DNA of 64,000 nucleotides from a virus, in IMG/VR virus record IMGVR_UViG_3300002835_000024. One strand, given 5' to 3'. Shown here one piece after another: positions 38,693-59,760 of this stretch. The notes beneath the pieces are model-generated. The model saw only the letters and a program-made list of their open reading frames with translations. It was not told the DNA's origin and did no database searches. Position numbers and translations under genes: made by a program. Every line of letters begins with the position of its first letter. The stretch's first letter is position 1.

Positions 38693-38904
38693 TGATTAAA
38701 CAAGATTATATCAAAGATAAAAACAGCGGCGCTATTTTAAATATAAATACAAAAGAATTTGAAGAATTAAAGCATAGAAGAAAACAAGATAAACAACTGA
38801 GAGAATATGAAAAAAGGATAACACAATTAGAAGCTCGTGTTGTTGAATTGACAAATTCTTTGAGAGCAGTTTTGGAGAAACTTAGTGTCGTATCCAGTCA
38901 GTAA
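38692..38904 (+). CDS. Small coiled-coil protein
   Basis: KDKNSGAILNIN followed by heptads; usual neighbour of VrlC-like genes. Confidence 0.6.
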   Translation: MIKQDYIKDKNSGAILNINTKEFEELKHRRKQDKQLREYEKRITQLEARVVELTNSLRAVLEKLSVVSSQ

Positions 38905-40102: not shown

Positions 40103-42028
40103 ATGGTAGATCAAAGATTTAAAGCGGATAAAGGTTTACAAGTTGCTGGCGGCAACACCGAATTAACGACCAATACCTTCATCAACGCTAATCTACAAGT
40201 AAATTCAATCGCCTCGTTTGTGGCAAACGTTTCTATAAACGCTACGGCTGAGATGAACGGAAATCTTGTTCCTGCCTCAGGCGGAAGTTTATCTGTTGGA
40301 GAAACGTCAAAACGTGTATCATTGTTTGTGTCTCAGTTCTCTTATGCAAACGCCACACAACCCTCTCTTCCTGTCACCGCAAATAATTCAGATACGGTTT
40401 TCGGATTAGACGCTTCCAACACTGGCATAATTGTAAAAACTGGAGACAAAACAGGAACAGTAAGATCTGTTGTCGGAGGAAACACCGTTTCTATTACCAA
40501 TGGAACAGGTGTTGGTGGTAATATGACAATATCAGCTGTTCTTAATACAGGATTGTCGTCAAATAGTTCTGGCATTTTCGTTAACGCCTCTTCAATTAAC
40601 TCTGGAGTAGCTCCTATTTCTGTTGGTGGAACAGGTGCTAGTAGCTCAATGGCAGCTATTTTAAATCTTTTGCCAAGTATAGTAGGAAATGCTGGTAGAT
40701 ATTTAAGGGCTGAGACAGGAACTCTTGTTTGGGATTCCGGAGTCGGAACTGGATTTGTAGGATCTCAAGGTTTTGTCGGTAGTGTTGGATTCACAGGTTC
40801 TCAGGGTGTTGGATTTACTGGATCTCAGGGCATTACTGGTCTTACAGGCTCCCAAGGTATTCAAGGCGTTGGATTTACTGGATCCCAAGGTATCCAAGGT
40901 GTTGGTCTAACAGGTTCTCAGGGTATTACTGGTTTTACAGGCTCCCAAGGTATTCAAGGAATTGGTCTTACAGGCTCCCAAGGTATTCAAGGAATTGGTC
41001 TAACGGGATCTAGAGGAGACATCGGACTCACTGGATCTCAGGGTATTCAAGGCATAGGATTTACAGGATCCCAAGGTATTCAAGGAATCGGGCTCACTGG
41101 ATCTCAAGGTATTCAAGGCGTTGGATTTACTGGATCTCAGGGTTTGACAGGAGTGGGATTTACTGGATCTATAGGATTTACTGGTTCAATTGGTCTTACA
41201 GGTTCTCAGGGTATTCAAGGAATCGGTCTTACGGGCTCCCAAGGTATCCAAGGTGTTGGATTTACTGGATCTAAAGGCGATATTGGTTTAACTGGATCTC
41301 AAGGTATCCAAGGTGTTGGATTTACTGGATCAATCGGATTTACTGGATCTGCTGGAGGATTTACAACAAATTCCAACGCTCAGGTAAATTCCCTTGGGGT
41401 CGGAACTGCTCCGAATAACACAACTGGTGAAATTTTAGCTAAACTGCTTAGAGACTCAGATAATACTGCATACTATTGCGATCCAGCAAGTTTCAGCGTG
41501 TTTAATTCTTTGACTATTGGTGGCGATACTGACATATATCTTTATGAAGACCCAACAAATGCTCTTACAATTAGACATGGTACTGTTGGTTCTTACAAAT
41601 ACACCAGATTTGAAGCTGGAGGTGGACTGTCTGTAAATAATGGTGGTCTTGGAGTAGGAACGGCTGCATCAGGAACCTCCGGAGAAATACGCGCCACAGA
41701 CAACGTTACTGCTTATTATTCTTCTGATAAGCGTCTGAAAGAAAATATTCAAACCATTGAAGATGCTCTGCAAAAAATAAAAAGAATAGATGGAGTAACT
41801 TTTGATTGGAATGATGAATACATAGAAAATGCTGGCGGAGAAGATGGCTACTTTATTAGAAAAAGAGATGTTGGTGTGATAGCTCAACAGCTTCAGGAAG
41901 TTTTACCAGAAGCAGTTGCAGAAAGAAAAGATGGTATTTTAGCAGTTAAGTATGAAAGGATTGTTCCACTTCTGATTGAGGCGATTAAAGCTCTCAGCGA
42001 AGAACTTGAACTGCTTAAACAGAAATAG
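40103..42028 (+). CDS. Tail fibre with GFTGS collagen-like repeats and C-terminal peptidase S74 chaperone
   Basis: [10 protein letters not shown] repeats; SSDKRLKENI...GVTFDW...GVIAQQLQEVLPEAV...LIEAIK. Confidence 0.85.
   Translation: MVDQRFKADKGLQVAGGNTELTTNTFINANLQVNSIASFVANVSINATAEMNGNLVPASGGSLSVGETSKRVSLFVSQFSYANATQPSLPVTANNSDTVFGLDASNTGIIVKTGDKTGTVRSVVGGNTVSITNGTGVGGNMTISAVLNTGLSSNSSGIFVNASSINSGVAPISVGGTGASSSMAAILNLLPSIVGNAGRYLRAETGTLVWDSGVGTGFVGSQGFVGSVGFTGSQGVGFTGSQGITGLTGSQGIQGVGFTGSQGIQGVGLTGSQGITGFTGSQGIQGIGLTGSQGIQGIGLTGSRGDIGLTGSQGIQGIGFTGSQGIQGIGLTGSQGIQGVGFTGSQGLTGVGFTGSIGFTGSIGLTGSQGIQGIGLTGSQGIQGVGFTGSKGDIGLTGSQGIQGVGFTGSIGFTGSAGGFTTNSNAQVNSLGVGTAPNNTTGEILAKLLRDSDNTAYYCDPASFSVFNSLTIGGDTDIYLYEDPTNALTIRHGTVGSYKYTRFEAGGGLSVNNGGLGVGTAASGTSGEIRATDNVTAYYSSDKRLKENIQTIEDALQKIKRIDGVTFDWNDEYIENAGGEDGYFIRKRDVGVIAQQLQEVLPEAVAERKDGILAVKYERIVPLLIEAIKALSEELELLKQK
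40750..41355 (+). repeat. Coding tandem repeat (G[FL]TGSQGIQG[VI])n
   Basis: Repeated ggatttactggatc.caaggtattcaagg units with synonymous divergence. Confidence 0.85.
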
Positions 42029-42030: not shown

Positions 42031-45000
42031 TTATTTTCTAGCAAAGTGATAATCGCCCTGAGTTCCAAACTCAACAAAGTTTGGCGTTACTAGAGCAAAT
42101 CCAATACTGTCAAGATACTCAATAACTTCTTTGTTCATTGGGGCTCCGATATTATATTCTTTATGCTGTAGCTCTAGTATCAGATGTTGGCAGGATTTTA
42201 AAGTTTCCTGAGCTCCTTTGAGAACATCAAGCTCTGCACCCTGAACATCCATTTTGATCAGATCAGGTTTGGGAAAGTTTTTGTTTTTAACTACTGAGTC
42301 TAGAGTTATTGATGTCTTTTCTATTTTGTTCGGGAATAGCTTATCTGCATCTGGACTATATTCGGTGTTTTCTTTATAGTAACTGTTTCCTCCAGGATGC
42401 TCTACGTTTTGATAGAATCCTATTTTCTTACCATCAACATCACTGAGTAGCCCAACATGATATGGAATATTTTTTTCTTTATATAAAAATTCTAGCTCAT
42501 CCATCGCATCAAATGCTATGTATTGAGAGTTTGGCCAAACGTGTTTTGCGCAATTTGTCCAATGCAGAACGCAAGCTCCAATATCATAGATAACCTTGGG
42601 TTCAACCTTTTTAGATTTCATTTTTACCAGATATTCATAGTGGGCTTGCAGCATGAGAGGTCTATCACCAAGATCTCTTAGTTTTCTTTTTTGTTCTTCT
42701 AATTTAAAATCAATATTAACTTTAAATGTGTGATAACCAATATGATCACAGATAATAGAAGTGTCCGCCCAGATTCGGAATCCTTTATTTTTTGCTTGTA
42801 CGCAAAAATATACATCTTCGCTTACGGTATTTTCAATAGTTAATGCGCTTTTGTAAACAAAATGTGGGTATGGAATGGATTTAAAAATTTCCCCCTTTAT
42901 CAGAACGCAACCAAATCCACAACCATCTATCTCAACTAATCCCTTTCCTCTAATCTCTTCCCAATTCACATGAGGCATATTACCATATACGTCTTTTCTC
43001 ATAATTTCAATCGTGTGGGTGCCAGGAATACGCTGAATATAAATTCCGCTTACCATATCAACATTGTGATTTAACATTCTAACAAGAGTATCAGGAGCAA
43101 AAGTTATATCGCTATCAACGGCAAACAAATAATCATAATTACAATTGATAACCCAATTGGCTATTAGATTACGAATTTGATCGATTTGATATCCATAAAA
43201 ATATTGAAAATCCGCTTCATAACCTTCAGGAATAATCAAATCATAAATGCTCTTGAATGTTTGCGCCTCAATATTTTTATTTGTTGGGATAGCAATTAAT
43301 ATTCTTTTTTTAGAATTTAAAGTTTGCATAATAACTTTGTCCTGTTCGTCTTTATTTACTTTATAATCATTGATGGGGCTGGCGTCATTGTAATTGCAAA
43401 CAATATCAGAAACAACATATATTTTATGTGGATGACAATTATTTATTGCTGTGTAGAATGTAGAAAGATCTCCACCAGCTTTGAACCAGTTTCCTTCTTT
43501 ATCTTGAAATGCAGAATCTGGAGCCCACTTCAACAAATGCGCTTTCATCGTTCTCAAATGTGTGTAGGGCACATTCCAATTGAACTTATAGTTTTTGTAA
43601 TTTTTAGTTTTCTTTATTTCAGGAGGATAAGGTTGGCTGACTAAAGGAATGTTATCAACCATACTCCAACAAGATCCATACGTGAAGTCGTTGTCATAAT
43701 GTATGTGATTATAATATGTGAATATGTCCGGATCATTTGTTAAACTGTCGTCACCGTCCAACATTACAACTATATCATTGTCGTTTAATTTTCTGATAGA
43801 TTGGATATGATTGTATGGGGCTCCGTTTCTATTTGAGTTGACAATAACCTTAAATTTATCTTTTATATCGTTTGGCAGAGAGTTGATTAGATCCAGTGCG
43901 GCTGCAGAACCATTATCAGTGCTGCAGTCATCAATTAGCCAATGCTCGTAGTTATCGTAATTCTGCGCTGCCACACTTGAAATGCAGCGCTTAATATAAG
44001 GCTCGGCGTTATAGAAAGGACTGATAACAACAATACGTTGTTCGGGTTTAAGTTTGGGGGCTACCCATTCTTCAGGAGTGCTTGTGCGGCGATTAAATAT
44101 TTCGTGATATTTCGTTTTGGTGTAATTTGCTTCAATGCTTTCGCCACGGCTTAGATAGAGACCGAGCCTTTTATAGATGTGCTGTTTCCATTCAAGCGCC
44201 ACAACATTCCAACCAACCAAAGGTTTAATTTCGTCTAATTTGTTCATTTTTTCTTGACGATCTGGATCGTTATAGGCCTGTACGACCATATCAACAAATT
44301 TTTCAGCTTGTGCATTAATATCAATATTAGGATAAACAACATTTGGCGTTGCGGAGTATTCAATCATATAAGCTTGTGGGCTCCCAGTTTCTTCCAGAGC
44401 TCCGAATCTACAGCCAATGATGAGAGTGTTTGCATAAAGGGCTTCTAGTGTGCTTATTCCATAGGTTTCTGGGAAAGCTGTTGGATAGATAAAGAAACTT
44501 GCAGCTTTGCACCAAACAGCCACTTCTTTTTGACTGATAATCCCAGTAAATGTTATGGTCGGATCTTCCATAAATGGCTCGACCAGTTTCATAAACTCTG
44601 ATTCTTCAGTATCGTTAGCCACAGCATTTCCGAGTTTATAATGTCCTCCAATTACCGCCAGTCTGGCTTTTGGGATTTTTTGTTTGACTCTGGGCCAGAC
44701 ATTTTTGAGCAGAGGTTCTAATCCCTTGCTCATGTTAGCATTGAAAATGAACAGATCAGGGTTTTTCTCGACAGTTTTGATGGGGTATCGGGTAATACCA
44801 TTACGGGTAATCCACATATGATTGCGAAGAACTTCGAAATTTCTTGGTTTGCCGTGATTGCAGTTAGTCACATAGTTATAGTGAAAATCGCTTAAAACCC
44901 AAATTTCGTCTATAGCCTTTGAAGTAACAAGATCTTCTAAAATCTCATCGCCCCAGCAAAACGTATCATGCATCCAAAACACTTTAAGTTTGGCGGCTTC

Positions 45001-46710
45001 TCTCATTTTTTCAAACTTTTGGAAAGGGATTTTTCTGTTGGTTGTTTGTTGCCAGTTATACCAAGGTTTGGTGATAAATGGAGTAACAACTCTGCTTGAT
45101 ATCAGAACATCATATGTTTGCTCGTCGTTTCCGATATCTGAAAGAGGTCTGTATTTTACGTTATCATATACGCCTGGACGATTTCCTTCTTCATCGCAAG
45201 CACAATAAACAGTAACATCAAATCCTTGGTGGGCCAATTCTTTGGCGCTGAGAATCACTGCACTCTCGCTCCCTCCAAGACCTTTGGTCTTTAATGTTTC
45301 CCCATCATAACTCATTCCTGTAATATCGATGTAAGCGACGCGAACTTCTTTTTCTTGTGGTAATCTCTGTGTGTTGCTGGCGGGCTCGGTGACTATAATA
45401 TCCTCTACGTTTGAGAACCTTTTTCCAAAAGTTTTTCTAACTCTATAATTAATCCAATTAACTTTCACCAACTCTTCGTCGGTCATCTGTTTATTGAATT
45501 TACGATAAAAATGCTGTTTCCATTGGAGCGCCACAGTATCCCATGTACTAATGTCTTTAATAGCGTTACACGCATACTGTTTCTGTTGATGAATATATGG
45601 GTTTGATACGACTGACAAAACAAGATCAACATATTTGTTGATCTGTTCCTCGGTATTGATATTCGGGAACAGTACATTGGGCTCGACTGCATAATCTATA
45701 AAATAGCTGGCAGCTTTGGTTCCGCTTTCTTCCATCGCTCCGAATCGAGTTCCGATAACAGGAGTATTATAATTGATGCTTTCTATTGTGCTGATGCCGG
45801 ATGTTTCCGGATAGGCTCCAGGAAACAGATTATAGGTTGCTTGTGCCATAATCTTGGCGATCTCAGGCTGGGGAATAATGCCTGTGAATTCGATTGATGG
45901 ATCTTTTTCACAGCTTTTTACAAGACCGCGCCATTCTTGCTGTGCTGGGCTTAGATCTTCATTTCGAAACTTGTAATAACCACCGATGATCTTGAGTTTG
46001 GCCTGGGGCAAATGTTGTTTGAGTCTGGGCCAAATACGTGTTACCAGAGGGATCATGCCCTTGGTAATACTGGCGTTATAGACGAAAAGATTGGGATCTT
46101 TTTGTTTGATATCAACCCAATCGATCCACCTGTTGATAGCGTTTCTTGTGTGGAATATTTTATTTTTAAAAACTTCGTATTGACGTTTTGGGCCATGGGT
46201 GCAATTTGTTGTATATGCGATATGCCAATCGCTCAGATTGAACACTTCATCGACATGATTGTTAACCAGAAGATACTCGAGCAGGTGATCGCCCCAGATA
46301 AACGTATCCTGCATCCAGATAATCTTTAACTGTTCTGGTTTTTGCACCTGAGTGAAGATATCAGGATCATAGTCTCTTGGAGCAGGCTGTCTAACCTGAT
46401 CATAAAGATGTTTTGGAGTAAACGGAATAACGGTTCTTTGACTGATCACAACATCAAAGTTAAATTCTTTCTGGCCGAGCATTGCAATTGGATAATACCG
46501 GACTCCATCATAGACTCCAGGTTCTGTCTCGGAAGTATCACAGTCATTTAAAACTGTTACCTCGAATCCAATTTTTACTAATTCTCTGGCGATAGAAATA
46601 ATAGAGCTTTCGCTTCCGCCAATACCTTTTTTCGTTAGAGTAGAACCATCATAATTAAGTCCAATACAATCAATAATTGCTATTTTTATGTTGTTATTCA
46701 TTAAACCCAT
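42031..46710 (-). CDS. Giant multidomain glycosyltransferase: GT4-GT4-GT2-GT2-like-FkbM methyltransferase
   Basis: Two GT-B modules (GIGGSE/GLGGSE; PETSGIS.IES/PETYGIS.LEA), GT2 (ISPFYNAE, IDDCSTD, LDGDD), second GT-A (AIP, FAVDSD, GCGFGCVLIK, SEDVYFC), FkbM (IYDIGA, LIKMDVQGAELDVLKG). Confidence 0.9.
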   Translation of the reverse strand: MGLMNNNIKIAIIDCIGLNYDGSTLTKKGIGGSESSIISIARELVKIGFEVTVLNDCDTSETEPGVYDGVRYYPIAMLGQKEFNFDVVISQRTVIPFTPKHLYDQVRQPAPRDYDPDIFTQVQKPEQLKIIWMQDTFIWGDHLLEYLLVNNHVDEVFNLSDWHIAYTTNCTHGPKRQYEVFKNKIFHTRNAINRWIDWVDIKQKDPNLFVYNASITKGMIPLVTRIWPRLKQHLPQAKLKIIGGYYKFRNEDLSPAQQEWRGLVKSCEKDPSIEFTGIIPQPEIAKIMAQATYNLFPGAYPETSGISTIESINYNTPVIGTRFGAMEESGTKAASYFIDYAVEPNVLFPNINTEEQINKYVDLVLSVVSNPYIHQQKQYACNAIKDISTWDTVALQWKQHFYRKFNKQMTDEELVKVNWINYRVRKTFGKRFSNVEDIIVTEPASNTQRLPQEKEVRVAYIDITGMSYDGETLKTKGLGGSESAVILSAKELAHQGFDVTVYCACDEEGNRPGVYDNVKYRPLSDIGNDEQTYDVLISSRVVTPFITKPWYNWQQTTNRKIPFQKFEKMREAAKLKVFWMHDTFCWGDEILEDLVTSKAIDEIWVLSDFHYNYVTNCNHGKPRNFEVLRNHMWITRNGITRYPIKTVEKNPDLFIFNANMSKGLEPLLKNVWPRVKQKIPKARLAVIGGHYKLGNAVANDTEESEFMKLVEPFMEDPTITFTGIISQKEVAVWCKAASFFIYPTAFPETYGISTLEALYANTLIIGCRFGALEETGSPQAYMIEYSATPNVVYPNIDINAQAEKFVDMVVQAYNDPDRQEKMNKLDEIKPLVGWNVVALEWKQHIYKRLGLYLSRGESIEANYTKTKYHEIFNRRTSTPEEWVAPKLKPEQRIVVISPFYNAEPYIKRCISSVAAQNYDNYEHWLIDDCSTDNGSAAALDLINSLPNDIKDKFKVIVNSNRNGAPYNHIQSIRKLNDNDIVVMLDGDDSLTNDPDIFTYYNHIHYDNDFTYGSCWSMVDNIPLVSQPYPPEIKKTKNYKNYKFNWNVPYTHLRTMKAHLLKWAPDSAFQDKEGNWFKAGGDLSTFYTAINNCHPHKIYVVSDIVCNYNDASPINDYKVNKDEQDKVIMQTLNSKKRILIAIPTNKNIEAQTFKSIYDLIIPEGYEADFQYFYGYQIDQIRNLIANWVINCNYDYLFAVDSDITFAPDTLVRMLNHNVDMVSGIYIQRIPGTHTIEIMRKDVYGNMPHVNWEEIRGKGLVEIDGCGFGCVLIKGEIFKSIPYPHFVYKSALTIENTVSEDVYFCVQAKNKGFRIWADTSIICDHIGYHTFKVNIDFKLEEQKRKLRDLGDRPLMLQAHYEYLVKMKSKKVEPKVIYDIGACVLHWTNCAKHVWPNSQYIAFDAMDELEFLYKEKNIPYHVGLLSDVDGKKIGFYQNVEHPGGNSYYKENTEYSPDADKLFPNKIEKTSITLDSVVKNKNFPKPDLIKMDVQGAELDVLKGAQETLKSCQHLILELQHKEYNIGAPMNKEVIEYLDSIGFALVTPNFVEFGTQGDYHFARK

Positions 46711-46712: not shown

Positions 46713-46784
46713 TATAAATAGAGCAAGAACTATTATTTATTGACGCAAAGTAGCAAAGTTTGGCGTGTCGCTCTTTAATAAATA
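46713..46784. promoter_or_regulatory. Cluster of late promoter boxes on both strands
   Basis: TATAAATA 46713-46720 (+), AATAAATA 46734-46741 (-), AATAAATA 46777-46784 (+). Confidence 0.6.
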
Positions 46785-46809
46785 AGAAAAAACTTGGAGG
46801 TTGAGAATA

Positions 46810-47139
46810 ATGGCGATTAAAGCAAATTTAGTCATCGATCAGGGATCAGATTTTATACAGGATTTACAGGTGACCCATGCAAACAGCGCTTCAATCAATC
46901 TAAGCGGTTATACTGGCTCTGCTATGCTCAGAAAAACATATACTTCTGAAGCACAAAAAACGTTTACTGTGACTACAAATCAAAATGGAATTGTTCAACT
47001 GCGACTTAATTCTGCAAACACTGAAAGTTTACAGCCAGGGCAGTATGTTTGGGATTGCGAGCTAACTGAAATTAATAGTGGGATCGTCACGAGAATAGTA
47101 GAAGGAATTGTTACTGTAACTCCATCTGTTACTCGCTAA
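46810..47139 (+). CDS. Small Ig-like virion protein
   Basis: ANLVIDQGSDF...INLSGYT...YVWDCEL...TRIVEGIVTVTPSVTR; GGAGG RBS. Confidence 0.65.
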   Translation: MAIKANLVIDQGSDFIQDLQVTHANSASINLSGYTGSAMLRKTYTSEAQKTFTVTTNQNGIVQLRLNSANTESLQPGQYVWDCELTEINSGIVTRIVEGIVTVTPSVTR

Positions 47140-47150
47140 GGAATATTTAA

Positions 47151-50100
47151 ATGCCACCTCCAATTCAAGTTATACTATATCCTAATACAGCGATTAATGT
47201 AGAGTTTGTACAAAACACACCATTCAAAGTTAAGTTAAAAGAATATCCAACTCAGATCATTTACCCTCTTCCTCCTAATAACATTTATGGTGCCAACATA
47301 TATGCAACAAATGCTGTATTTGTCGGAAACTCAACAGTAAATGTTTCTATCAACTCTACTTCTTTTAGTGGAACTTCCAACAATTCTATACATTTTGGTA
47401 ATTTAACTTTAGCAAACGTACAAGCCCAAATAACAGGTAATGCTGCCACCGCTTTCTCAAATGCAGTGTCAACTTCTGCCTCAGGAGCGGCTCTTATTTA
47501 CCAAACTATGGCTGGTCTATCGGCCAATGTCGCAACACTAACTTCTAATAATTCAACAAATTTTGGTGGACTGTCTCTCGCAACAGTACAGGGTCAAATA
47601 ACAGGAAACGCGGCGACAGCTTATACAAACGCTGCGGCTTATGCAGACACTAAAGCTTCAGCTGCTTATAGTAACGCCATTGCGTATTCCGGAAACGCCT
47701 CTTTGGCTTACGCAAATGCTATAGCCTACGCTGACAATAAAGCAGCTAATGCGTACTCTAACGCAGTTTCTTACACTGATATCAAAGCTGCAAACGCCTA
47801 TTCAAACGCTATCGCGTATGCTGACGACAAAGCCGCGAACGCTTATTCAAACGCCACAACTTTTGCTTCAAATGCAACAAATATTACTTCTGGCACTCTT
47901 AACACGGCCAGACTCCCAGCAACAGTCAACGTTGCAACAGCGTTAAACATTGGTTCTAACGTTAACGTTAACACCTCTGTAATCCAGATTGGTAACTCTA
48001 CCGTCAATACTGTTATCAATTCTTCTTCTATTGTAACTTCTTCGGTCACATTCGGAAACACAAACGTTACTGGGGATCTGATTGTTTCTGGAAACGTTTT
48101 CTTTAATGGCCCAACAACTAACGTAAATTCTACCAATCTTGTCATCGAAGATAAAAACATTATACTTGGAGACGTAGCTACACCAAGCGATTTTACTGCC
48201 GATGGTGGTGGTATTACTCTAAAGGGTGCTACGGATAAAACTCTAACTTGGGTTGATGCCACTGATGCCTGGACTTCATCTGAAGATTTTAATCTAGTTT
48301 CTGGAAAAAGCTATGAGATTAATGGTGTTGTTGTTGTCAACTCCACCTCACTCGGAACTGGTATATTAAGTTCTTCTCTAACTTCAGTTGGTAATCTGAC
48401 AACACTGAATGCTGGCAACACAACCATAACTGGATTCGCTAACATCTCTTCACATCTTACTGTTGGCGGAAATGCAACTTTTTCTGGTAATGTAGATTTT
48501 GATTCCGGAACTCTATTCATTGATAATGTCAATAATAAAATTGGTATTAGTAACACTTCGCCGTTATCTAAATTTGTTGTTCAAGATTCGTTAACTGCTA
48601 ACGATACTTCAACTGTTCTTATTGCTCCTACATGGAATGCGACCGCCAATACATTTACCGCATTTAAAATCAATGCGACGGATACTGCTTCTAACAGTAA
48701 TAGTTTGTTGATGGATCTACAAGTTGGCGGAAGCAGCAAATTTAAGGTTTCCAAAGCTGGTATTGTTACCGCTTCTGATGATGGATATCTGGCTGGCGGT
48801 CGGGCTTGGTTCTCGCAATATGGGGCATTTTTAAAGTCTGACGCGATTATATCGTGGGGAAATGCAACATCGTCATATTCTAGTGCTGACACCATTCTAG
48901 CTCGAGATGCTGCTGGTATTTTGGCGCAACGCAATGGTACAAACGCCCAAGCTCTTAGAGTCTATGACACATACACTGACGCTTCCAACTATGAACGAGT
49001 TGTGCTTTCTGCTACTGAAAATAATTTAGGATTTGTTGGATACGAAGCAGCAGGAACTGGTTCTAATAGAAACTTTGCTGTAAGAGGAGCTCAGGTACTT
49101 TTACAAACAGGTAGCTCAAACAATCGCTGGATTGTTGATGGTAGTGGTCATTTCACGGCAGCAACAGATAATACCTACGACATCGGCGCAAATGGAGCAA
49201 ATAGGCCAAGAAACGTTTATGTTGGCACAAACGTAACTGTCGGCGATACTGTAACTGCAGCTAATTTTTTTGCTGGGGCCACAGGAACATTTATATTTAA
49301 TGGAAGAAGCAGAATTCTTTCTCCAAGTGATGGAGTTTTAGGATTATACAATAACGGTTCAACAGACTTCAACCGTCTCCAGTTTGGTGGCACAACCTCA
49401 AGTTTCCCCGCTCTCAAGCGCAATAGCGCTGAGATAGATGTAAGACTTGCCGATGATAGTGGATATACAAGTATAACAGCAGCCACAGTTTATGCAGCGC
49501 AAAATTTTAGAGCAACATCAAACACTAGTGTTATCTCTTTGGGTTCCTCTAATGATATTGTTCTTGCTCGTGATGCAGCAGACATCCTCGCCCAGCGGCG
49601 GGGCACGAACGCTCAAACGTTTAGGATTTACAATACATACACTGACTCGAGCAATTATGAGCGGCTAAACATCTTATGGTCTGCAAACACAGCGTTTGTG
49701 GAAACGCTTGCGGCAGGCACAGGAGCTGCGCGAAGCCTTATCATCGGCTCCAATGGGTCTGGAACAAATCTTGGGTTTATGTCCGCTGGGACAGTTAGAT
49801 GGCGTGTTAATTCCAATGGCCACCTGACGGCGGAAGTTGACAACACCTACGACATCGGCGCGAGCAATGCCACAAGACCGCGCAACGTGTTTGTTGCTGG
49901 ATATGGATCATTTGGAACTTATAGCGGATCAGACTTAGGGGCTGGTGGTGTATCTGTATCCAATCATATTGTGATGATTGGTTCGAGCTCCTCTAGATCT
50001 CAAAGATCTGTTATATTTGCAAGTAGTGGCGGAGCAAGAAGAGGGGTGGTTTCTTCTGAGTGGATAACAAGCGATCTTCCAGTGGAATTTAGTAATGGTT

Positions 50101-53100
50101 CAGTTTTATTTGCTGGATTTTCTAACACGGGTAATTTTGGTATAAGCAACAGCGCACCAACCCACAAATTATCAGTAAACGGCAACGTTTATTTCGGCAG
50201 TACTCTAGACGTTCTCAATTCAGTTACTTCTGGAAACCTGACCGTAACTGGATTTGTCAATGCAAGCGTCAGCGTAAACTCTGCTCTTGTTACTGTTGGT
50301 TCGAACGTTTCTCTTAACACAACAACTCTGTCTATCGGAAACTCTACTGTCAATACCGCTATAAGCGCTGCAACTATCACCATTAACGGAGTTAATGTCA
50401 ACACAGCTATCACTTCAAACGCTGCTACGGCCTACTCTAATGCTGTTACTTATGCAGATGCAAAGGCTGCTACGGCTTATTCAAACGCTACTGCTTATGC
50501 TGCTTCTAACACTTATGTAAATTCCACGTTCCTGCCATTGTCTGGCGGAACTCTAAACGGAAATCTAACGATTAATGCAAGCGCCAACGTTGTTTCTAAT
50601 CTTGCTGCCAATAACGTTACTATTAGAGGTGACGTTCAGATCGACGGCAACCTGACTGTTTCAGGAACAACTGTTACCATCAGCGCAACAAATTTAGCTG
50701 TTGAAGATAACATGATCTATCTTAACGATGGATCAACAACTTCTAATCCTGATCTTGGATTTGCCGGAAACTATAATGATGGTTCTTACAAACATGCTGG
50801 TTTCTTCCGCGATGCAACTGATGGCATCTGGAAAGTTTTTGATAGCTATACTCCTGAGCCTGACGCAAGCGCTTATATTGACACCAGCAATGCTTCTTTC
50901 AGAATAGCTAATTTCCAAGCTAACGTTATCACAGCAAATAGCTTCAGCGGTAACGGAAGCAACATAACAACAATCAACGCTGATAGTATTTCATCAGGAA
51001 CGCTTAACACTGCTAGACTGCCAGCCACCGTAAACGTATCAACAGCTTTCAATATTGGCTCCAATGTTAATGCCAATACTTCTACTCTGTTTATCGGAAA
51101 CTCCACTGTTAATACTGTTATCAGTGCGGCCACAATAACAATCAATGGTGTCAATGTTAATACTGCTATCACCAGCAACGCGGCGACAGCTTACTCTAAT
51201 GCCATAGCTTATTCAGGAAATGCGGCTCTGGCTTATGCTAACGCAATAGCTTTCTCGGCAAACGCTGATAATATTTCTTCTGGCACTCTAAACACTGCTA
51301 GATTGCCAGCAACAGTTAATGTTTCAACTGTGATAAATGTTGGAGCTAACGTAAACGTCAATACTTCAACAATACAGATTGGTAACTCTACCATCAATAC
51401 TGTAATAAGTGCTGCTACTATTACGATCAATGGAGTAAACGTTAATACTGCTATTACTAGCAATGCAGCAACAGCCTACAGTAACGCTATTGCATACTCA
51501 GGCAACGCTGCTCTGGCTTACTCGAATGCTACTACGTTCGCTTCAAACGCAGATAATATTTCTTCGGGCACGTTAAACACTGCTAGACTTCCTGCAACAG
51601 TTAATGTAACCAGTGTTCTGAACGTTGGGTCTAATGTCAACGTCAATACTTCTGTGATTCAAATTGGCAACTCAACTGTTAACACAGTTATCAACTCTTC
51701 CAGCATTGCAACAGGCTCCGGAACATTCGGAAATACCACGATTACTGGCGATCTTGTTGTTTCTGGAAACGTGTTCTTCAATGGACCAACCACAAACGTC
51801 AACTCAACAAATCTTGTTGTTGAAGATAAGAATATTGTTCTCGGAGACGTAACCACACCAAGTGATGTGACGGCAGATGGTGGTGGTATCACTCTCAAAG
51901 GCGCGACAGACAAAACCTTTAATTGGGTTGATGCGACTGATGCCTGGACTTCTTCAGAGCATCTAAATCTTGTTTCAACCAAGAGCTATCAGATTAATGG
52001 TGCTGTTGTTGTTAACTCAACTGCTCTGGGAACTGGGATTGTAAGCTCTTCGCTGACTTCGGTTGGTACTCTAACCACTCTATCAACTGGAAATACTACG
52101 ATTACTGGATTTGCTAACGTATCTTCTACACTACAGGTTGGAGGAAATGCAACTCTTTCCGGAACTCTACAAACAATATCTGGTAACGTTAACGTTGATT
52201 CGGGTGTTCTTTTTGTTGACGCAACAAATAACAGAGTTGGTATTAACACAACAACACCTTCGGCGGCTTTACACGCAATTAGTGATAATATTGTGTTTCA
52301 GGGTGTTGGGGGTGCAAGTTTATCAGTCATAAATGGTAGCGGTATTCGCGCAACCTCTGAATTGTATCTTGATACAGTAGCGTCAACTGGCGGTGACATT
52401 TTTATTAGGCCAAGAACAGCCACTGCAATTACTATTAAAAACACAACAGGCGATGTCGGAATAGGCAACACTGCGCCAACTCACAAACTTTCTGTTGCAG
52501 GCGATATTTACAGAGGCACATCTTCAACTTATAATAGTTTAATTGATAATAGTGGATTTAGAGCTACTGTTCCAAGTGGAGCAACATCTAATCTTAGATT
52601 GATACAAACTGGAATTGCAGATATTACTATCAATAATGAAGCAACAACAGGATCTCTGGTAACATCAGGACAAAATACTACGGAATTTCGTACAGCTACG
52701 ACTGCTCAAACGTTGAAATCTTATAACACATTTACGGATGCGAGTAACTACGAACGTCTTGGAATTAATTGGACTTCGAATACACTGCAAATTTTAACTG
52801 AGCGAGCAGGAACAGGAACAAGCAGAGATCTGCAAATTGGTACTGCGGGCACTTCAGATTTTTATATTCGTACAAATAATACTGATCGTTGGAGAGTAAC
52901 ATCTACTGGTCATATGTTAGCTCATGCAGACAACACATATGACATCGGCGCAAGCGGCGCAAATAGACCTAGAACAGGGTATTTTGTAACGTCAGTTATT
53001 GTAGGTACAGATACAAAGTTGACAAACGGCGTAATTAGCACGCTTAACATCAACAACGCCGACAATACTAATACACTATGGGCTTTTGCTAGTAGCTCCG

Positions 53101-53591
53101 CAAACGCAACATTTTCATTGGGCGCAACTACCCCTATCATGCGTTTCAGCGGCTCAACATCCAGCTTCCCTGCCTTAAAACGCAACGGAACAGCAATTAA
53201 TGTTCGTCTTGCAGACGATTCTGCAGATGCTCCGTTGACAGCTTCTCAGATTACACACAATACAAATTTGGTAACGACATCAGAAGCTACAACTCTGGCA
53301 ACAACAACCAAAACTCAGGTTGCGTCTTTCGCTTCTGCTTCTTTCCGTTCTGGTAAACTAATGGTCCAGGCTTACGACTCTGTCACTGGCGAAGTCCAAA
53401 TATCTGAACTACTGGTAGCCCACAATGGAACCACAGCATCATCTACCGAATATGGTGTGGTGTTTACAGGCTCTGCAGCATTAGCTACATATGATGTGGA
53501 TATATCAGCAGGAAATGTCAGGCTGATGGCGACAAGAACTACGACTAACTCTACCCAATACAAAACTTCAGAAATGTTATTAATAGCCTAG
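47151..53591 (+). CDS. Long proximal tail-fibre-like protein (2146 aa) with internal duplications
   Basis: AYSNAIAY 11-residue repeats, four SGTLNTARLPATVNV modules, duplicated EDKNI...GGGITLKGATDKT module, IGISNT.P..KL.V knuckles. Confidence 0.8.
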   Translation: MPPPIQVILYPNTAINVEFVQNTPFKVKLKEYPTQIIYPLPPNNIYGANIYATNAVFVGNSTVNVSINSTSFSGTSNNSIHFGNLTLANVQAQITGNAATAFSNAVSTSASGAALIYQTMAGLSANVATLTSNNSTNFGGLSLATVQGQITGNAATAYTNAAAYADTKASAAYSNAIAYSGNASLAYANAIAYADNKAANAYSNAVSYTDIKAANAYSNAIAYADDKAANAYSNATTFASNATNITSGTLNTARLPATVNVATALNIGSNVNVNTSVIQIGNSTVNTVINSSSIVTSSVTFGNTNVTGDLIVSGNVFFNGPTTNVNSTNLVIEDKNIILGDVATPSDFTADGGGITLKGATDKTLTWVDATDAWTSSEDFNLVSGKSYEINGVVVVNSTSLGTGILSSSLTSVGNLTTLNAGNTTITGFANISSHLTVGGNATFSGNVDFDSGTLFIDNVNNKIGISNTSPLSKFVVQDSLTANDTSTVLIAPTWNATANTFTAFKINATDTASNSNSLLMDLQVGGSSKFKVSKAGIVTASDDGYLAGGRAWFSQYGAFLKSDAIISWGNATSSYSSADTILARDAAGILAQRNGTNAQALRVYDTYTDASNYERVVLSATENNLGFVGYEAAGTGSNRNFAVRGAQVLLQTGSSNNRWIVDGSGHFTAATDNTYDIGANGANRPRNVYVGTNVTVGDTVTAANFFAGATGTFIFNGRSRILSPSDGVLGLYNNGSTDFNRLQFGGTTSSFPALKRNSAEIDVRLADDSGYTSITAATVYAAQNFRATSNTSVISLGSSNDIVLARDAADILAQRRGTNAQTFRIYNTYTDSSNYERLNILWSANTAFVETLAAGTGAARSLIIGSNGSGTNLGFMSAGTVRWRVNSNGHLTAEVDNTYDIGASNATRPRNVFVAGYGSFGTYSGSDLGAGGVSVSNHIVMIGSSSSRSQRSVIFASSGGARRGVVSSEWITSDLPVEFSNGSVLFAGFSNTGNFGISNSAPTHKLSVNGNVYFGSTLDVLNSVTSGNLTVTGFVNASVSVNSALVTVGSNVSLNTTTLSIGNSTVNTAISAATITINGVNVNTAITSNAATAYSNAVTYADAKAATAYSNATAYAASNTYVNSTFLPLSGGTLNGNLTINASANVVSNLAANNVTIRGDVQIDGNLTVSGTTVTISATNLAVEDNMIYLNDGSTTSNPDLGFAGNYNDGSYKHAGFFRDATDGIWKVFDSYTPEPDASAYIDTSNASFRIANFQANVITANSFSGNGSNITTINADSISSGTLNTARLPATVNVSTAFNIGSNVNANTSTLFIGNSTVNTVISAATITINGVNVNTAITSNAATAYSNAIAYSGNAALAYANAIAFSANADNISSGTLNTARLPATVNVSTVINVGANVNVNTSTIQIGNSTINTVISAATITINGVNVNTAITSNAATAYSNAIAYSGNAALAYSNATTFASNADNISSGTLNTARLPATVNVTSVLNVGSNVNVNTSVIQIGNSTVNTVINSSSIATGSGTFGNTTITGDLVVSGNVFFNGPTTNVNSTNLVVEDKNIVLGDVTTPSDVTADGGGITLKGATDKTFNWVDATDAWTSSEHLNLVSTKSYQINGAVVVNSTALGTGIVSSSLTSVGTLTTLSTGNTTITGFANVSSTLQVGGNATLSGTLQTISGNVNVDSGVLFVDATNNRVGINTTTPSAALHAISDNIVFQGVGGASLSVINGSGIRATSELYLDTVASTGGDIFIRPRTATAITIKNTTGDVGIGNTAPTHKLSVAGDIYRGTSSTYNSLIDNSGFRATVPSGATSNLRLIQTGIADITINNEATTGSLVTSGQNTTEFRTATTAQTLKSYNTFTDASNYERLGINWTSNTLQILTERAGTGTSRDLQIGTAGTSDFYIRTNNTDRWRVTSTGHMLAHADNTYDIGASGANRPRTGYFVTSVIVGTDTKLTNGVISTLNINNADNTNTLWAFASSSANATFSLGATTPIMRFSGSTSSFPALKRNGTAINVRLADDSADAPLTASQITHNTNLVTTSEATTLATTTKTQVASFASASFRSGKLMVQAYDSVTGEVQISELLVAHNGTTASSTEYGVVFTGSAALATYDVDISAGNVRLMATRTTTNSTQYKTSEMLLIA

Positions 53592-53601
53592 GAGAATATA
53601 A

Positions 53602-53814: not shown

Positions 53815-53828
53815 AAGAAAAAAGACTT

Positions 53829-53871: not shown

Positions 53872-56800
53872 ATGGCAAATGATAAAAAATTTGTAGTCAA
53901 AAATGGACTACAAACTTCTAACATTAATTTCGTTGATTCGAATGCAAACAATACAGTTTTTGTTGAAGTATCAACAACAATTGCAAACACAGTAACGTTT
54001 GCCGGAAATGTCCACGCAACTGGGTTCGTCGGATCTGGTACAGGATTAACCCAACTTAACGCCACTAATATCAGCACAGGAACAGTAGGCACTGCTCGTC
54101 TTGGTTCTGGAACCGCCAACACAACAACATGGCTAAGAGGTGATGGATCTTGGCAGGTAGGCCCACTTGGTTATACTGGTTCTGTTGGATTTGTTGGATC
54201 TAAAGGCGACATTGGTTTCACAGGTTCAAAGGGTGACATTGGATTTACTGGATCTGCAGGATTTGTCGGATCTCAAGGCATTCAAGGAGTAACTGGTTTT
54301 ACTGGTTCGCTGGGTGCTACTGGTCCTACAGGCCCTACTGGACCTCAAGGAGCTACTGGTTTTACAGGTTCTCAAGGTATTCAAGGCGTCACAGGATTTA
54401 CAGGATCACAGGGAATACAAGGCGTTACTGGATTCACAGGATCAGTCGGTTTTGTTGGATCTAAAGGAGATATCGGTTTTACTGGTTCATTAGGAGCAAC
54501 AGGCCCAACTGGCCCAACTGGTCCTACTGGATTTACGGGTTCTAATGGATTTACAGGTTCGTTAGGTGCCACAGGACCCACAGGACCCACTGGATTTACT
54601 GGATCTGTCGGCTTTGTTGGTTCAAAGGGTGACATAGGATTTACTGGCTCGACAGGATTTACAGGATCTAAAGGTGATATCGGTTTCACTGGTTCTGTTG
54701 GTCTAACTGGATCTCAAGGTATTCAAGGCGTTATAGGATTTACTGGCTCGACAGGATTTACAGGATCTAAAGGTGATATCGGTTTCACTGGTTCTGTTGG
54801 TCTAACAGGATCTAAAGGTGATATCGGTTTCACTGGATCAAAGGGCGATATCGGTTTCACTGGCTCGACAGGATTTACTGGATCAAAGGGCGATATCGGT
54901 TTCACCGGATCTTCGGGCGCGAGCATCCTTGGAACAAACAATACTTGGAGCGGCGTAAACACATATGGCACAGTAACATACCCACTAACTTTATCAAATG
55001 GAGCATACTTAAGGTTTTATAGTTCAGGTACCGATTGGGCTATAGGAAAACCAGACGCGGATCAACTTATATTATATCGTGGCGCGACTGCATGGCTTCA
55101 GTTTGATTCTTCTGGCAACCCATTTATAAATTCCAATAAACTTTGGCACGCTGGGAACGATGGATCAGGTTCTGGCTTAGATGCAGATTTATTAGATGGT
55201 TATAATATTGGAACTTCTGGTGGAGCAGTTCCTCTACTGAATGGCACTAATACGTGGGGTGCTACGCAAACAATTACTAATGGCGGAGCAAACAGTATTG
55301 GATTAACTGTTGGCAATTCTCAATCAATTCTTGACGTCTCTGGTGGAGATGGAGCATATTCGTGGTTAGGATCAAGAACTTGGGGTTTTGATATACGTTA
55401 TGGAGCTTCAAACGCTTCAACTGGTTTCAGAATGACGAATGCAGGCGTTTTATATGCAGGAACCTCTAACTTAATTTGGCACGCTGGGAACGATGGATCT
55501 GGCTCTGGATTAGACGCTGATTTGTTGGACGGTTATAACATAGGAACTTCTGGTGGTACTATTCCTCTGTTGAATGGTACTAATACATGGAGCGGAACAC
55601 AAAATATTCAAATGGCCACAAACAGCAATTTGTTTGACCTGACTGATAATACAGTAGGAACAAAATTAAGATTTGTTCCTGTTGAGATTTCGGGCACCAG
55701 AAGAATGCATTTCTTGTTTAGTCCTGATGGATCAACCCCTTCTAGCCTAGGATATTTTGATAGCACTGGTATAGAATTAGCTTCTGGAAAAGCCTTTAAA
55801 GTGAACGGAAGCACAGTCTGGCATGCTGGCAACGATGGCTCAGGCTCTGGATTAGACGCTGATTTGTTAGATGGCATTAATTCGTCTGGATTTGCTCGTT
55901 TAGCCATCACAGGCAGTCAAACGTTTGGAACAGGAGCTACTTCTGAGGCTGGAATTATTGTTAATGGTAACAATTCTGGAACTAATGGAGGTTCTTATGT
56001 TTCTGTTCAATATGGCGGTGTTACTTCAGTTGCAATAGGCAATGCTTCGGCTATATTGGGCGGAGCTTTTAATTCTACCTCATTAATCTACTCAGGAACA
56101 GGAGCTATTTATTTTAACAATACCTCTAACTTGATGTGGCATTCTGGCAATGATGGTGCAGGTTCTGGCTTAGATGCAGACTTGTTGGATGGTTATAATA
56201 CCTCAACATCCACAACTGTTAATACTGTAGCTGTTCGGGATTCTAATGGTAGTTTATTAGCACAACAATTTGCTGCCTACTCTAATGCTCCGTATTTTGA
56301 GTGGTATGAGAATGATGCTACGACAGATCAAAAACGATGGAGAATGATTGGTGATGGTGGAGGAACGCTTAGTTTACGTGCAGTAAATGACGCCTATAAC
56401 TCTGAAACAATAGCTATGAATTTTTATCGTTCTGGAACTACTGTTACTGGAGTAGATGTTTATTCCCCATATGTGCAAGTAAACAAAACTTCAGATGCTG
56501 GATTTATTTCAACATCCAACTATCCGTTTTTTGATCTTAGAGATGTTGATGCAGGTACCAATGAGAAAAACTGGAGATTTGAAGCAGGAAATTCTACACT
56601 AAATCTTGTTGTTTATAATGATGCATTTACGGCTAGCAGTTATCAATTTACTGTGCGAAGATCAGGTAGTGCATTAACAAGATTTGACGTTGCAACTGTT
56701 TTAAATCTTACCGATGCTGTTGCTAATGATAGAACAGAACTAAGATTTAGCGGTGGATTAAGGCTGTTTAATAAAGACAATAGCTCGATTTTATTTGGTA

Positions 56801-59760
56801 CCACAAATACACAAAGAATGGAAATTAACGCTTCGGGCAACATAACTGCCAGCGTTGATATACGCTCTCCAATATATTATGACAGCAATAATACAGGATA
56901 TTACGTTGATCCAGCAAGTACATCAATAATTAATAAAATTAATATTCCTTCTGGATCCCAGTCGATCAATACTACTACACCAGGTATTACTGAATATCAA
57001 TTAAATTTTACTGGACAAGCTACTGCTGATAATGCTCAAGCAATAACATGGGGTTGGGGTGCTAGTGGTGCACAGGCTGGTGTCTATGTTCAATCTTCTG
57101 GTTCATATGGCACTAAAATGTATTTGGCTACCACGGATTCGTTTGCAGCAGGCTCTAAAACTGCATTAACAATTGATCATCTTGGAATTATAACTACTAA
57201 TCGCAACTATTTACAGGCTACAGATTCTCTCCGCGCTCCAATTTTTTATGACAGCAACAACACATCGTATTATATAGATCCTGCCAGCACCTCAAATACA
57301 GCTTTACGGATGAGAGGTGGTGCTCTTTTTGGACCAAATACTTCCTGGTCTGCATATCTGTCAATAGGAACAGATGGTCACGCCAGTGCTTCTTATGCTA
57401 GTGTTGCGACAACAAACGGTAATTTGCACATAGATGCTGCTTCTGGTCTAGATACATATATTAATTATTATGCTGGGAATAATTTTTATTATGCTTATGG
57501 CGGAACAATACGAGGCGGTTTTTATACCGATTCTTCGGTAAGAGCAAATATTTTTTATGATCTTAATAATACAGGATATTACGTTGATCCATCATCAACT
57601 GGGACTAGTTTAAGTCTCCTTGGAAATATTAACTTTAACTCCGCAAGCGCTGAGAAAACTATACAATGGCAATTCACTGGAAGAAACGCATATATTTTTG
57701 GCAGAGACAGTGATGATATGATTGGTCTGTACGATGGTACAGCTGGTCTTAGCAGATTTGAGACATATCCATCAGGAGTGTTTTACGCCCCTGATATTAG
57801 ATCATCAATATTTTATGACAGTAACAATACAGCATATTATATTGATCCATCAAACTCTACTACTTCCGGAATTTTTGCAGGAAGTATTGGTGCTGGCACA
57901 ACAAGTGCAGATTATCGAATTCATGCAAATGATTCTTCTCTGGGCACAACTCAAGGCAATACAAAGCTACTTCTTAGGTTACAAACTTCTACATCTAATG
58001 CGGATTATCTCAATTTCTTCAAAATTCGTAATAGTAATGGTAGTGATTGGTCAACGTCTGGCTGGAGATTGCAACAATTAGTTGATGTAACTTGGCACGC
58101 TTACATACAATTTAATGGAAATAATAACGAAGGATTAAGTTTTGGTACGGGTGGATCTTCAGTTGGTCCATTAAGCGTAACTGAAAGATTAAAAATTAAC
58201 AATAGTGGCAACGTAATTGCCAGTGTTGATATGAGAGCCCCTGTATTTTATGATACTGCGGACACTGCATATCGCGCAGATCCTCAAGGAACTTCTGTGT
58301 TTGCAAACCTTGCACTTGGTGGTTCTACATCGGTACCACAGGGTGTAATATGGGCAAACGGCGACGCTTGGTTTACTGGTGGAACGAGAAAAGTAGCATT
58401 TACCACTGACTCCAGTACAGATGGAACTCCAAACGTTGCGGTTGAAGGAGAAAGTAACGATCTGGTTATAAGAAACTGGTCGGGAAGCGCATATAATGAA
58501 AATCTTCGTGTGGCAGGTTCTACCAGAAGAGTTGGCGTAGGAGGAGTAACTCCAGATTATACTCTAGATGTTAACGGCGTAATTAGAGGCAGATATACAG
58601 CTGGAGCTGGTACTGCCGCTCTATATCTCACTGGAGGTTATGCTCAATTTCAAAAAGACAACAATGTTCGTATGGACATTAATAATGTCGGCGGTTTAGA
58701 CGCTAACTCTCCTTTCTGGATAGGTTATCATTGGACGCCACCTGACGTCATTACTAATGCAAGCGCGCAAAATAGTTTTCCAAGAACATCTTTTTATTGG
58801 AACTATAGCACAACAAGCAATCCTAGTAATTTAACTTGGAACATGTGGGCTGGAAATGGTAATGGTCTTTCATTAAGCATGCTTTTTGGAACCGACTCAA
58901 ACGGAACTATTTCTTTTGCTACAGCTAACACAGTAAGACTTTCAGTAAACTCTTCTGGGAATGTAACTGCTAACGTTGATATGCGTTCTCCAATATTTTA
59001 TGACAGTAATAATACTTCTTACTATCTGGATCCTGCATCAACATCACAAGTTTATAATATGGTGTTTAACAATCCAGCAAGTGCCAAATTTGCTAATCCA
59101 TATTATGAGTGGAGAAGAGCAAATAATACCAGAAACGGATATATTCAGTTTCAAGATGGTGGCACACTAATCTTAGATAACGAAGCTGGCGAAAATATAT
59201 ACACTTATGGACTCACAAACGCCCAACAATATTTATTTGCAAGAAATGGATATTCGGCGCTATCTATATATTCTAGTGGCACAAACACTTCTTATCTGAT
59301 ATTTGCTAACGCAACTAGTGCAGAACGCTTTAGACTTTATGTAGATAATGGTAGAACTCTCTACATGTCTGGTAATAACGGCTCGACCAACCATTTCTCT
59401 TTTGACTCTAGCGGAAACTTCATAGCCCTTGCAAACATTACTGCATACGGAACACCATCAGATAGGAAGTTCAAAGAAAATATTCAAGATCTTCCTAATG
59501 CACTAGATAAAATATTAAAACTTCGTCCAGTTACATTTGACTGGAAAGAGGAAACCCCACAAAACTCACAAGTAAATCTTGTGAATGATGTTGGTTTTAT
59601 TGCCCAAGAAGTCCAGGAAGTTATTCCAGATCTCGTCAGAGATTTCGATGGTTCTTTATCCCTCAGAGAACGAGGACTGATAGCATATCTTGTTCAGGCA
59701 ATCAAAGAACAGCAAGCTCATATAAATAGATTAGAACAAATGATAAAGGAGAAATTATGA
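53872..59760 (+). CDS. Long distal tail fibre (1962 aa) with collagen-like repeats and S74 chaperone
   Basis: GFTGS/GPTGPT repeats, four [17 protein letters not shown] motifs, repeated YDSNNT.YY.DP.STS, C-terminal SDRKFKENI...[12 protein letters not shown]. Confidence 0.88.
54165..54915 (+). repeat. Coding Gly-X-Y repeat (GFTGSKGDI / GATGPTGPT)
   Basis: About 250 codons with Gly at every third position. Confidence 0.85.

Follow-up and report, generated by a model that had tools for sequence, protein, structure and literature searches.

A five-module glycosyltransferase and methyltransferase fusion among the tail-fibre genes of a T4-like phage: a candidate system for virion glycosylation

The window analyzed here is a stretch of 64,000 nucleotides (nt) of DNA of an uncultured freshwater phage, from IMG/VR record IMGVR_UViG_3300002835_000024, and the gene in question is a minus-strand open reading frame (ORF) among its tail-fibre genes (Table 1). 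The ORF is unbroken and encodes a single polypeptide of 1559 amino acids (aa), here called the enzyme, with five intact modules in the order GT4, GT4, GT2, minimal GT-A and FkbM methyltransferase. It is a virus-encoded multi-transferase for capped glycans, a general kind that is already known, and it appears to belong to a large and mobile family that is known only from phages and is unstudied. The best reading of its role is glycosylation of the virion, most probably of the fibres, a reading that falls slightly short of an even chance and is adopted here tentatively.

An earlier note on this DNA, made without database searches, had described one chain with a duplicated GT4 pair, two GT-A/GT2 modules and an FkbM methyltransferase, and matches from Pfam, NCBIfam, PHROG and fold comparison agree with that description. 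Pfam families Glycos_transf_1 and Glyco_trans_1_4 each match two stretches of the enzyme, best at residues ~206-328 and ~655-774, with scores of 65.7 bits (cut-off 26.4) and 70.9 bits (cut-off 27). Glycos_transf_2 matches residues 895-1052 (73.6 bits, cut-off 23.3) and Methyltransf_21 (PF05050, FkbM) residues 1376-1538 (64.2 bits, cut-off 22.7); NCBIfam TIGR01444 (fkbM_fam) agrees on the methyltransferase domain, at 60 bits in one search and 64.9 bits (cut-off 37.7) in another. Residues 1134-1332, between GT2 and FkbM, match phrog_1574, a family of unassigned function (E 7e-24). The two GT4 modules (A and B) are 41% identical across 434 aa (E 2e-127) and are evidently paralogues produced by internal duplication; a sequence comparison of the two GT-A modules (C and D) revealed no similarity to each other. 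The true start is probably M4, the second ATG, at 46701, since the database copy has 1556 aa, relatives begin MNK... or MKK..., and AGGA lies 8 nt upstream.

The catalytic motifs are all in place: EX7E at 302-310 and 748-756, DDCS at 927 and DGDD at 985 in the GT2 module, and DSD at 1199 in module D. E302 and E310 are invariant across 26 module sequences, the aspartates of module C (D928, D985-G-D987-D988) in 120 sequences, and D1376 and G1378 of the S-adenosylmethionine (SAM)-binding D-x-G-x motif of the methyltransferase (module M) in 61. Among 61-120 homologues the signature residues of all five modules are kept without exception.

Residues 1131-1345 (module D) have 9,522 matches at E up to 1e-3 among 1.84 billion representative proteins, including many stand-alone proteins of about 200 aa and many other fusions. 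When the module was aligned with 47 of these matches, the D-x-D, E-D and His positions proved invariant; Pfam Anp1 matches 36 of the 48 members of that alignment. The profile of module D finds A197 (2c0n) first in the PDB (E 2.3e-10), followed by yeast Mnn9 (1e-4). The AlphaFold (AF2) model is confident (pLDDT 94.2), and VIA-align again places A197 first (Z 20.3, root-mean-square deviation 2.2 Å, 163 residues), ahead of Mnn9 and the LH3 glycosyltransferase domain (17.8), Mimivirus R699 (17.4) and ColGalT1 (15.5). Ordinary GT2-type enzymes reach Z 14.7 at most, and Foldseek agrees with this picture. Because the profile matches to A197 and Mnn9 are joined by a confident GT-A model, module D is a genuine fourth glycosyltransferase (GT).

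For module A, the AF2 model (pLDDT 88.7, pTM 0.90) has the two-Rossmann GT-B fold, and its best Foldseek matches are MshA, GlgM, BshA and PimB' (E 1e-13 to 1e-12). The matches span the whole GT4 family with nearly equal scores, a breadth that says nothing on the acceptor. With the FkbM module, a sequence search of solved structures gave no useful relative. In the PDB the GT2 module has a sequence match to GalT1, over 46 residues only, and this was dropped as evidence for a protein acceptor.

Judged from sequence, the four GT sites and the SAM-methyltransferase site are intact, and the chemistry is soundly predicted. Given these sites and their invariant signature residues, the expected product is a methyl-capped oligosaccharide, or a short capped polymer. 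The earlier note had proposed a methyl-capped oligosaccharide on fibre or baseplate proteins; the chemical half of that proposal holds, and the acceptor has to be argued from circumstantial evidence that points both ways.

Genomic position is part of that evidence. The enzyme gene is the sole minus-strand gene between 15.6 and 64 kb, inside a 48-kb run of baseplate and fibre genes and within the fibre region equivalent to T4 genes 9-12/wac. It is convergent with one fibre gene, their stop codons being 2 nt apart, and is divergent, across a 90-nt gap, from a fibre-assembly-like gene, which with the giant fibre genes beyond it occupies 46801-59760; its placement antisense between fibre genes is thus as first noted. 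The convergent fibre contains seven shorter Gly-X-Y tracts with about 37 triplets in all, and the 1962-aa fibre at 53872-59760 has 85 uninterrupted triplets. In both flanking fibres together Thr occupies the Y position 54 times in ~122, in triplets of the types GFT, GPT and GVT.

The association recurs elsewhere. At 10 of ~24 distinct loci the enzyme gene has a collagen-like ORF no more than about 6 kb away (L- and G-numbers are our handles for related loci and carrier contigs). Such an ORF directly adjoins the enzyme gene in the window and in L018, L047 and L052, among flanking genes that are otherwise unrelated. In L047 the enzyme gene is antisense between two collagen-like ORFs, as in the window, and in L052, a 331-kb contig, the divergent neighbour of a 1160-aa enzyme variant is an 1826-aa ORF with 385 Gly-X-Y triplets (L052:4423-9900, minus strand).

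A mechanism consistent with these observations would be as follows. The enzyme would act as a soluble cytoplasmic assembly line with five active sites (the GT4 pair, GT2, the A197/Mnn9-like GT-A and FkbM), using nucleotide sugars of the host or modified by the phage as donors. At least four sugars would be added in succession, followed by an O-methyl cap. The product would be a defined oligosaccharide or else a short polymer terminated by the cap. The acceptors would be the phage's own virion proteins, before or during assembly, and the chief sites might be the Thr/Ser-rich collagen-like (GFT-GSx-GPT) tracts of the fibres encoded on both sides of the gene. Such a glycan coat could alter the solubility or stability of the fibres, adsorption, or recognition by hosts and grazers. 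Acceptor, sugars, order of action and timing of expression are all inferred.

Ser/Thr O-glycosylation seems more plausible than hydroxylysine glycosylation, as no collagen-type hydroxylase accompanies the enzyme gene. The latter (LH3 / COLGALT1 type) was considered in view of a fold likeness of Z 15.5-17.8 and was rejected for want of such a gene alongside: the two near-complete carriers have no PF13640 oxygenase, and the single one found, in G003, is about 90 kb from the enzyme gene. The earlier suggestion of N-x-S/T acceptor sites fared poorly, as these sequons are only mildly over-represented in the fibres (z 1.3-2.9 against composition-matched shuffles), and it was dropped.

The promoter evidence bears on whether the window copy is expressed with the structural genes. 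Exact TATAAATA octamers occur nine times in the window, all on the plus strand and all preceding plus-strand genes, giving what appears to be a clean map of T4-type late promoters. A late-type box had been claimed for the enzyme gene. The exact copy nearest to it belongs to the gene at 46801, because it is on the plus strand; a one-mismatch variant, AATAAATA, does lie on the enzyme gene's own strand, at a distance of 24 nt from the first ATG and 33 nt from the probable true start. This variant is also found, at 15574-15581, 23 nt before the gp4-gp2-gp3 operon, the only other minus-strand transcription unit, and 17-65 nt upstream of several plus-strand genes. A search of the 90-nt gap upstream of the enzyme gene found no sigma-70-type site. 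Late expression of the window copy is therefore a plausible proposal, resting on one short A+T-rich motif. Further window genes, both minus-strand units among them, are preceded by NATAAATA variants.

Several points weigh against the fibres as target. The support for this acceptor is contextual, and the nearest folds of the GT4 module act on small molecules or lipids, not on proteins. Inserted genes are known to concentrate in fibre regions, and location by itself may therefore be of little significance. In the majority of the related loci the available flank contains no collagen-like gene (for many, none within 10 kb), and the jumbo carriers have 18-23 segments that match the GFTGS-type collagen tract and form several clusters scattered over the genome. 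By a rough estimate, a neighbour within 6 kb would be expected by chance about one time in five. Because of this background the enrichment of collagen-like genes is suggestive only, and adjacency as a strict rule was rejected, in view of the many loci without it and of the dispersal of such genes in jumbo phages. A one-mismatch late-type octamer arises by chance at appreciable frequency in DNA of 61% A+T. Finally, in most related loci the enzyme gene is preceded by a sigma-70-type promoter (TTGACA-like, 17 nt, TATAAT-like), a hint that those phages express it early or constitutively.

Between the sigma-70-type promoter and the ATG, these relatives have a small inverted repeat with TTAAATA as its loop, ending 5-9 nt short of the start codon, and no Shine-Dalgarno sequence is present. 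The arms vary from locus to locus yet stay complementary (GATACA/TGTATC, AAGCAC/GTGCTT, AGAGTAT/ATACTCT). TTAAATA also occurs at a like distance upstream of other genes in the relatives, one of them a collagen-like fibre gene without a sigma-70 box, and the repeat may be a promoter or translation signal of jumbo phages. Since it has its own sigma-70-type promoter there, the enzyme gene of the relatives is probably an independent, moron-like unit read by the host polymerase, and its timing would not be uniform across the family. The GTs that build the chlorovirus capsid glycan are early genes (PMC9614988), so sigma-70-type promoters in the relatives are compatible with a virion target.

The family was found in phage and other viral records only, as far as the searches reached. 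In a large protein collection, more than 120 proteins, all of them metagenomic, match the enzyme over its full length at 50-84% identity, the closest at 82-84%. Scans of IMG/VR and of JGI metagenomes gave 26 and 29 loci, and the closest in the metagenome scan was about 77% identical. Nearest ESM Atlas clusters with assigned taxa are tailed phages. A tblastn search of isolated phages gave single-module matches only, none covering more than 24% of the enzyme, and a pattern-based scan of 185,579 cellular species genomes, in which only close relatives would show, found none. The papers searched describe no studied representative, as the earlier note had supposed.

For three carriers the contig is 327-353 kb long, and two of these contigs are 92-99% complete by estimate. 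The genes that flank the enzyme gene in them are not those of the window, and the window's homologue of gp6 has only a weak N-terminal match in them (E 1e-7 to 1e-10), against about 66% end-to-end identity for the enzyme. Between these unrelated phages the enzyme is thus far better conserved than core structural genes, which points to horizontal transfer. Each jumbo carrier also encodes 3-6 nucleoside diphosphate (NDP)-sugar epimerases or dehydratases, so its glycan metabolism is predicted to be extensive. Directly upstream of the enzyme gene in two loci is an ORF of ~147 aa resembling an endonuclease (phrog_452; L016:9496-9939, E 2e-21; L001:9502-9942, E 2e-16), and ORFs of similar size occupy its place in L017, L034 and L050. 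It may be a homing-type nuclease, which could explain the spread of the enzyme gene.

Of the domain architectures, the complete A-B-C-D-M arrangement was counted 53 times and A-B-C-D 51 times. Less common are forms in which a further GT2-like module separates C from D, M is doubled or precedes D, or additional domains stand at the N- or C-terminus. The GT4-GT4-GT2 core is constant and the C-terminal capping modules vary. In L006, where the fused M is absent, the next gene (L006:14064-14675) encodes a TylF / Methyltransf_24-type O-methyltransferase, an apparent non-orthologous replacement of the capping step, and the methylation step would thus stay next to the gene by means of a different enzyme. 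The equivalent ORFs in L018 and L020 have no Pfam match.

These observations lead to a wider proposal, offered more tentatively than virion glycosylation itself. A mobile, phage-only family of assembly-line enzymes may O-glycosylate Thr/Ser of collagen-like (GFTGS/GPT) tail fibres with a methyl-capped glycan, and would provide phages of Gram-negative freshwater bacteria with a means of virion glycosylation. The stem of the glycan, made by the GT4-GT4-GT2 core, might be common to the family, and variety at the exposed tip might come from exchange of the C-terminal modules (extra GTs; FkbM, TylF-type or doubled methyltransferases).

A serious rival, which we regard as rather unlikely, is that the enzyme remodels glycans of the host envelope, i.e. 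lipopolysaccharide O-antigen, capsule or exopolysaccharide built on undecaprenyl-phosphate at the inner membrane face. This may mask receptors against superinfection or keep progeny off cell debris, and the fibre cluster would then be a permissive insertion site only. GT4, GT2 and FkbM are the usual content of bacterial surface-polysaccharide clusters, the enzyme has weak NCBIfam matches to TuaG, WcaA, EpsE and PglI types, and a tandem GT4 pair with a methyl cap resembles the WbdA/WbdD polymannan system of E. coli O8/O9a. The host-type promoter of most relatives fits as well, and the NDP-sugar genes of the jumbo carriers recall the 'cell-wall modification' islands discussed for cyanophages (PMC12801897). 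However, no membrane segment is evident in the enzyme (the highest 19-residue Kyte-Doolittle mean is 1.3), as had been noted before, nor is an amphipathic anchor. The scanned genes of the window include no initiating phosphoglycosyltransferase, flippase, ABC exporter or ligase, functions that host machinery could supply. The lack of close cellular relatives, the late-type box of a window copy without a sigma-70 box, and the recurrence of the gene directly beside collagen-like fibre genes likewise speak against this rival.

A minor rival, improbable in our estimation, is an auxiliary metabolic function apart from the virion, in which the enzyme makes a methylated glycan or glycoside that is free, or anchored to a small molecule, in the infected cell. 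The structures nearest to the GT4 module do use small acceptors (MshA, BshA, sucrose-phosphate synthase, GlgM, methylmannose-polysaccharide mannosyltransferase), and in relatives the gene has its own, moron-like promoter. Against this, the Foldseek matches are spread over the whole GT4 family at near-equal scores, the literature searched holds no precedent for such a phage product, and recurrent adjacency to fibre genes would be left unexplained.

Hypermodification of the phage DNA with an oligosaccharide, in the way that T-even and other phages glycosylate hydroxymethyl-pyrimidines against restriction, is very unlikely. We know of no DNA precedent for four transferases with a sugar O-methyl cap. 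The role most commonly given to phage GTs is glycosylation of DNA (PMC12619734; PMC10202952), and one of the 48 members of the module D family weakly matches the TET-associated GT family (E 0.008). However, the near-complete jumbo carriers each have a single protein of thymidylate-synthase fold, which lies above the NCBIfam equivalog cut-offs for true thymidylate synthase (judged by family cut-off), no match to the Pfam families of the T4 alpha- and beta-glucosyltransferases was found at E up to 0.1, and the window copy has a late-type box. As the earlier note had also observed, no DNA-modification genes occur among the scanned ORFs of the window. A TET/JBP search gave no match, but control genomes were silent too, which makes that result uninformative.

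The gene order of the window is T4-like, as first proposed. PHROG matches in its first part are to a helicase loader and a single-strand-binding protein, followed by the minus-strand gp4-gp2-gp3 late operon with head-closure, DNA-end-protector, tail-tube-like and baseplate-hub proteins. After this come baseplate genes including the homologue of gp6, a 30-kb block of giant fibre-like genes, and neck and sheath-stabilizer genes. The best matches of the gp6 homologue are in Caulobacter phage Cr30 and Sinorhizobium phage phiM12, at only 38% identity, and megablast searches of isolated phages with the enzyme gene and with 24 kb of the window gave no match. Between fibre genes lies also a 402-aa ORF (38885-40093, plus strand) that is 13% Asn and 25% Ser+Thr and has no PHROG or Pfam match; TATAAATA is found 136 nt upstream, and its real start may be earlier.

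Table 1. Coordinates of the enzyme gene, its modules, neighbouring genes and promoter motifs in the window, and of corresponding features in related loci
Feature	Position	Strand	Remarks
Whole five-module enzyme ORF	42031..46710	-	1559 codons from first ATG; 1556 aa from probable true start 46701
Module A, GT4-type GT-B glycosyltransferase, residues 1-445	45376..46710	-	EX7E E302-E310
Module B, second GT4, residues 446-885	44056..45375	-	EX7E E748-E756; paralogue of A
Module C, GT2 (GT-A), residues 886-1130	43321..44055	-	D928, D985-G-D-D988 invariant
Module D, minimal GT-A, A197 / Anp1-Mnn9 type, residues 1131-1345	42676..43320	-	D1199-x-D1201, E1298-D1299, H1323 invariant
Module M, FkbM-family SAM methyltransferase, residues 1346-1559	42034..42675	-	D1376-x-G1378 invariant
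Tail-fibre gene, convergent with enzyme gene	40103..42028	+	collagen-like GFT/GLT-GSx tracts 40751-41353; candidate acceptor
Small fibre-assembly-like gene, divergent from enzyme gene	46801..47139	+	phrog_1084, phrog_3304
2146-aa fibre-like structural protein	47151..53591	+	25% Ser+Thr; possible acceptor
1962-aa tail fibre	53872..59760	+	85 consecutive Gly-X-Y triplets at 54160-54924, Thr dominant at Y; candidate acceptor
Late-type box AATAAATA, enzyme gene's own strand	46734..46741	-	one mismatch; putative promoter
Exact TATAAATA box nearest enzyme gene	46713..46720	+	opposite strand to enzyme gene; serves gene at 46801
Exact TATAAATA boxes	5325, 6284, 15585, 27377, 38742, 46713, 53829, 59721, 62797	+	8 intergenic; 59721 inside 3' end of preceding fibre gene
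Sigma-70 promoter and TTAAATA repeat	L001:9930-10000; L041:7790-7862; L050:9940-10007		
Sigma-70 promoter and TTAAATA repeat, equivalent places	L004, L006, L016, L017, L018, L020, L034, L035, L037		
Loci with collagen-like ORF within ~6 kb, besides window	L001, L004, L016, L018, L025, L035, L047, L050, L052		
Jumbo carriers	G001 (L016), G002 (L018), G003 (L006)		353 kb, 328 kb and 327 kb

To our knowledge, virus-encoded glycosylation of the virion has been established in a few giant viruses only and, of the phages, in mycobacteriophages, which were also the only phage precedent in the literature searched. If this family does coat tail fibres, glycans would be a common trait of the virions of T4-like and jumbo phages that abound in fresh water, with consequences for adsorption and host range, for the stability of the particles and for their recognition by hosts or grazers. 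Whatever its target, a compact soluble protein that combines five steps of glycan synthesis, and whose modules are exchanged in nature, is attractive to enzymologists and for glyco-engineering. As none of the well over a hundred full-length members has been studied, a single biochemical study would annotate them all.

Tandem GT domains whose chain growth is ended by a methyl or methyl-phosphate cap are found in WbdA-WbdD of E. coli O8/O9a and in Geobacillus WsaE. The substrates of these systems are lipid-linked intermediates at the membrane, and they depend on machinery for export and ligation, none of which is encoded near the enzyme gene. A197 of the archaeal virus STIV is an essential GT that possibly glycosylates the capsid protein B345 (PMC10551542). 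A197 and module D are homologues, both being minimal GT-A enzymes of ~200 aa with DxD, at an identity of only about 23%; A197 stands alone and its acceptor is presumed, whereas module D is part of a fusion.

For the repeats themselves, the parallel is with spore proteins. The collagen regions of BclA carry short O-glycans (PMC12357932), the Gly-X-Thr-rich collagen-like exosporium fibres BclA / BclA3 are O-glycosylated (PMC7157674), and the BclA tetrasaccharide of B. anthracis ends in a 2-O-methylated sugar (PMC6222408). Such fibres show that Thr-rich collagen-like repeats are natural carriers of O-glycans. They are bacterial spore proteins served by separate cytoplasmic GT genes (e.g. SgtA), and what they have in common with the window is the repeat chemistry only.

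Among phages, mycobacteriophage-encoded GTs modify the phages' own structural proteins in the bacterial cytoplasm (Freeman et al. 2023, as cited in PMC12619734). That system uses separate small GT genes and its acceptors are the C-termini of capsid and tail-tube subunits, whereas the enzyme is one five-module fusion. Virion glycosylation is itself established there, and the collagen-like fibres proposed here are candidate acceptors. The hosts differ as well: mycobacteriophages infect actinobacteria, and the nearest cultured relatives of the window phage infect Caulobacter and Sinorhizobium.

The closest functional analogue, by architecture, appears to be A064R of chlorovirus PBCV-1, a soluble protein with two rhamnosyltransferase domains and a C-terminal capping 2-O-methyltransferase that builds the capsid glycan (PMC9614988), in agreement with the earlier note's account of a fusion of several GTs and a methyltransferase; chlorovirus A111/114R similarly carries three GT domains on one chain (PMC9614988). 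A064R has 638 aa and three domains against 1559 aa and five, and its hosts are eukaryotic algae, those of the window phage bacteria. The domain families differ too: A064R has no GT4 pair and its D2 is a family of its own, and it is not among the listed sequence or structural matches of the enzyme modules, where distant kinship would not necessarily show. The likeness lies in the plan of the protein, a virus-encoded, soluble and cytoplasmic multi-transferase that would take consecutive steps of one glycan and add the methyl cap last.

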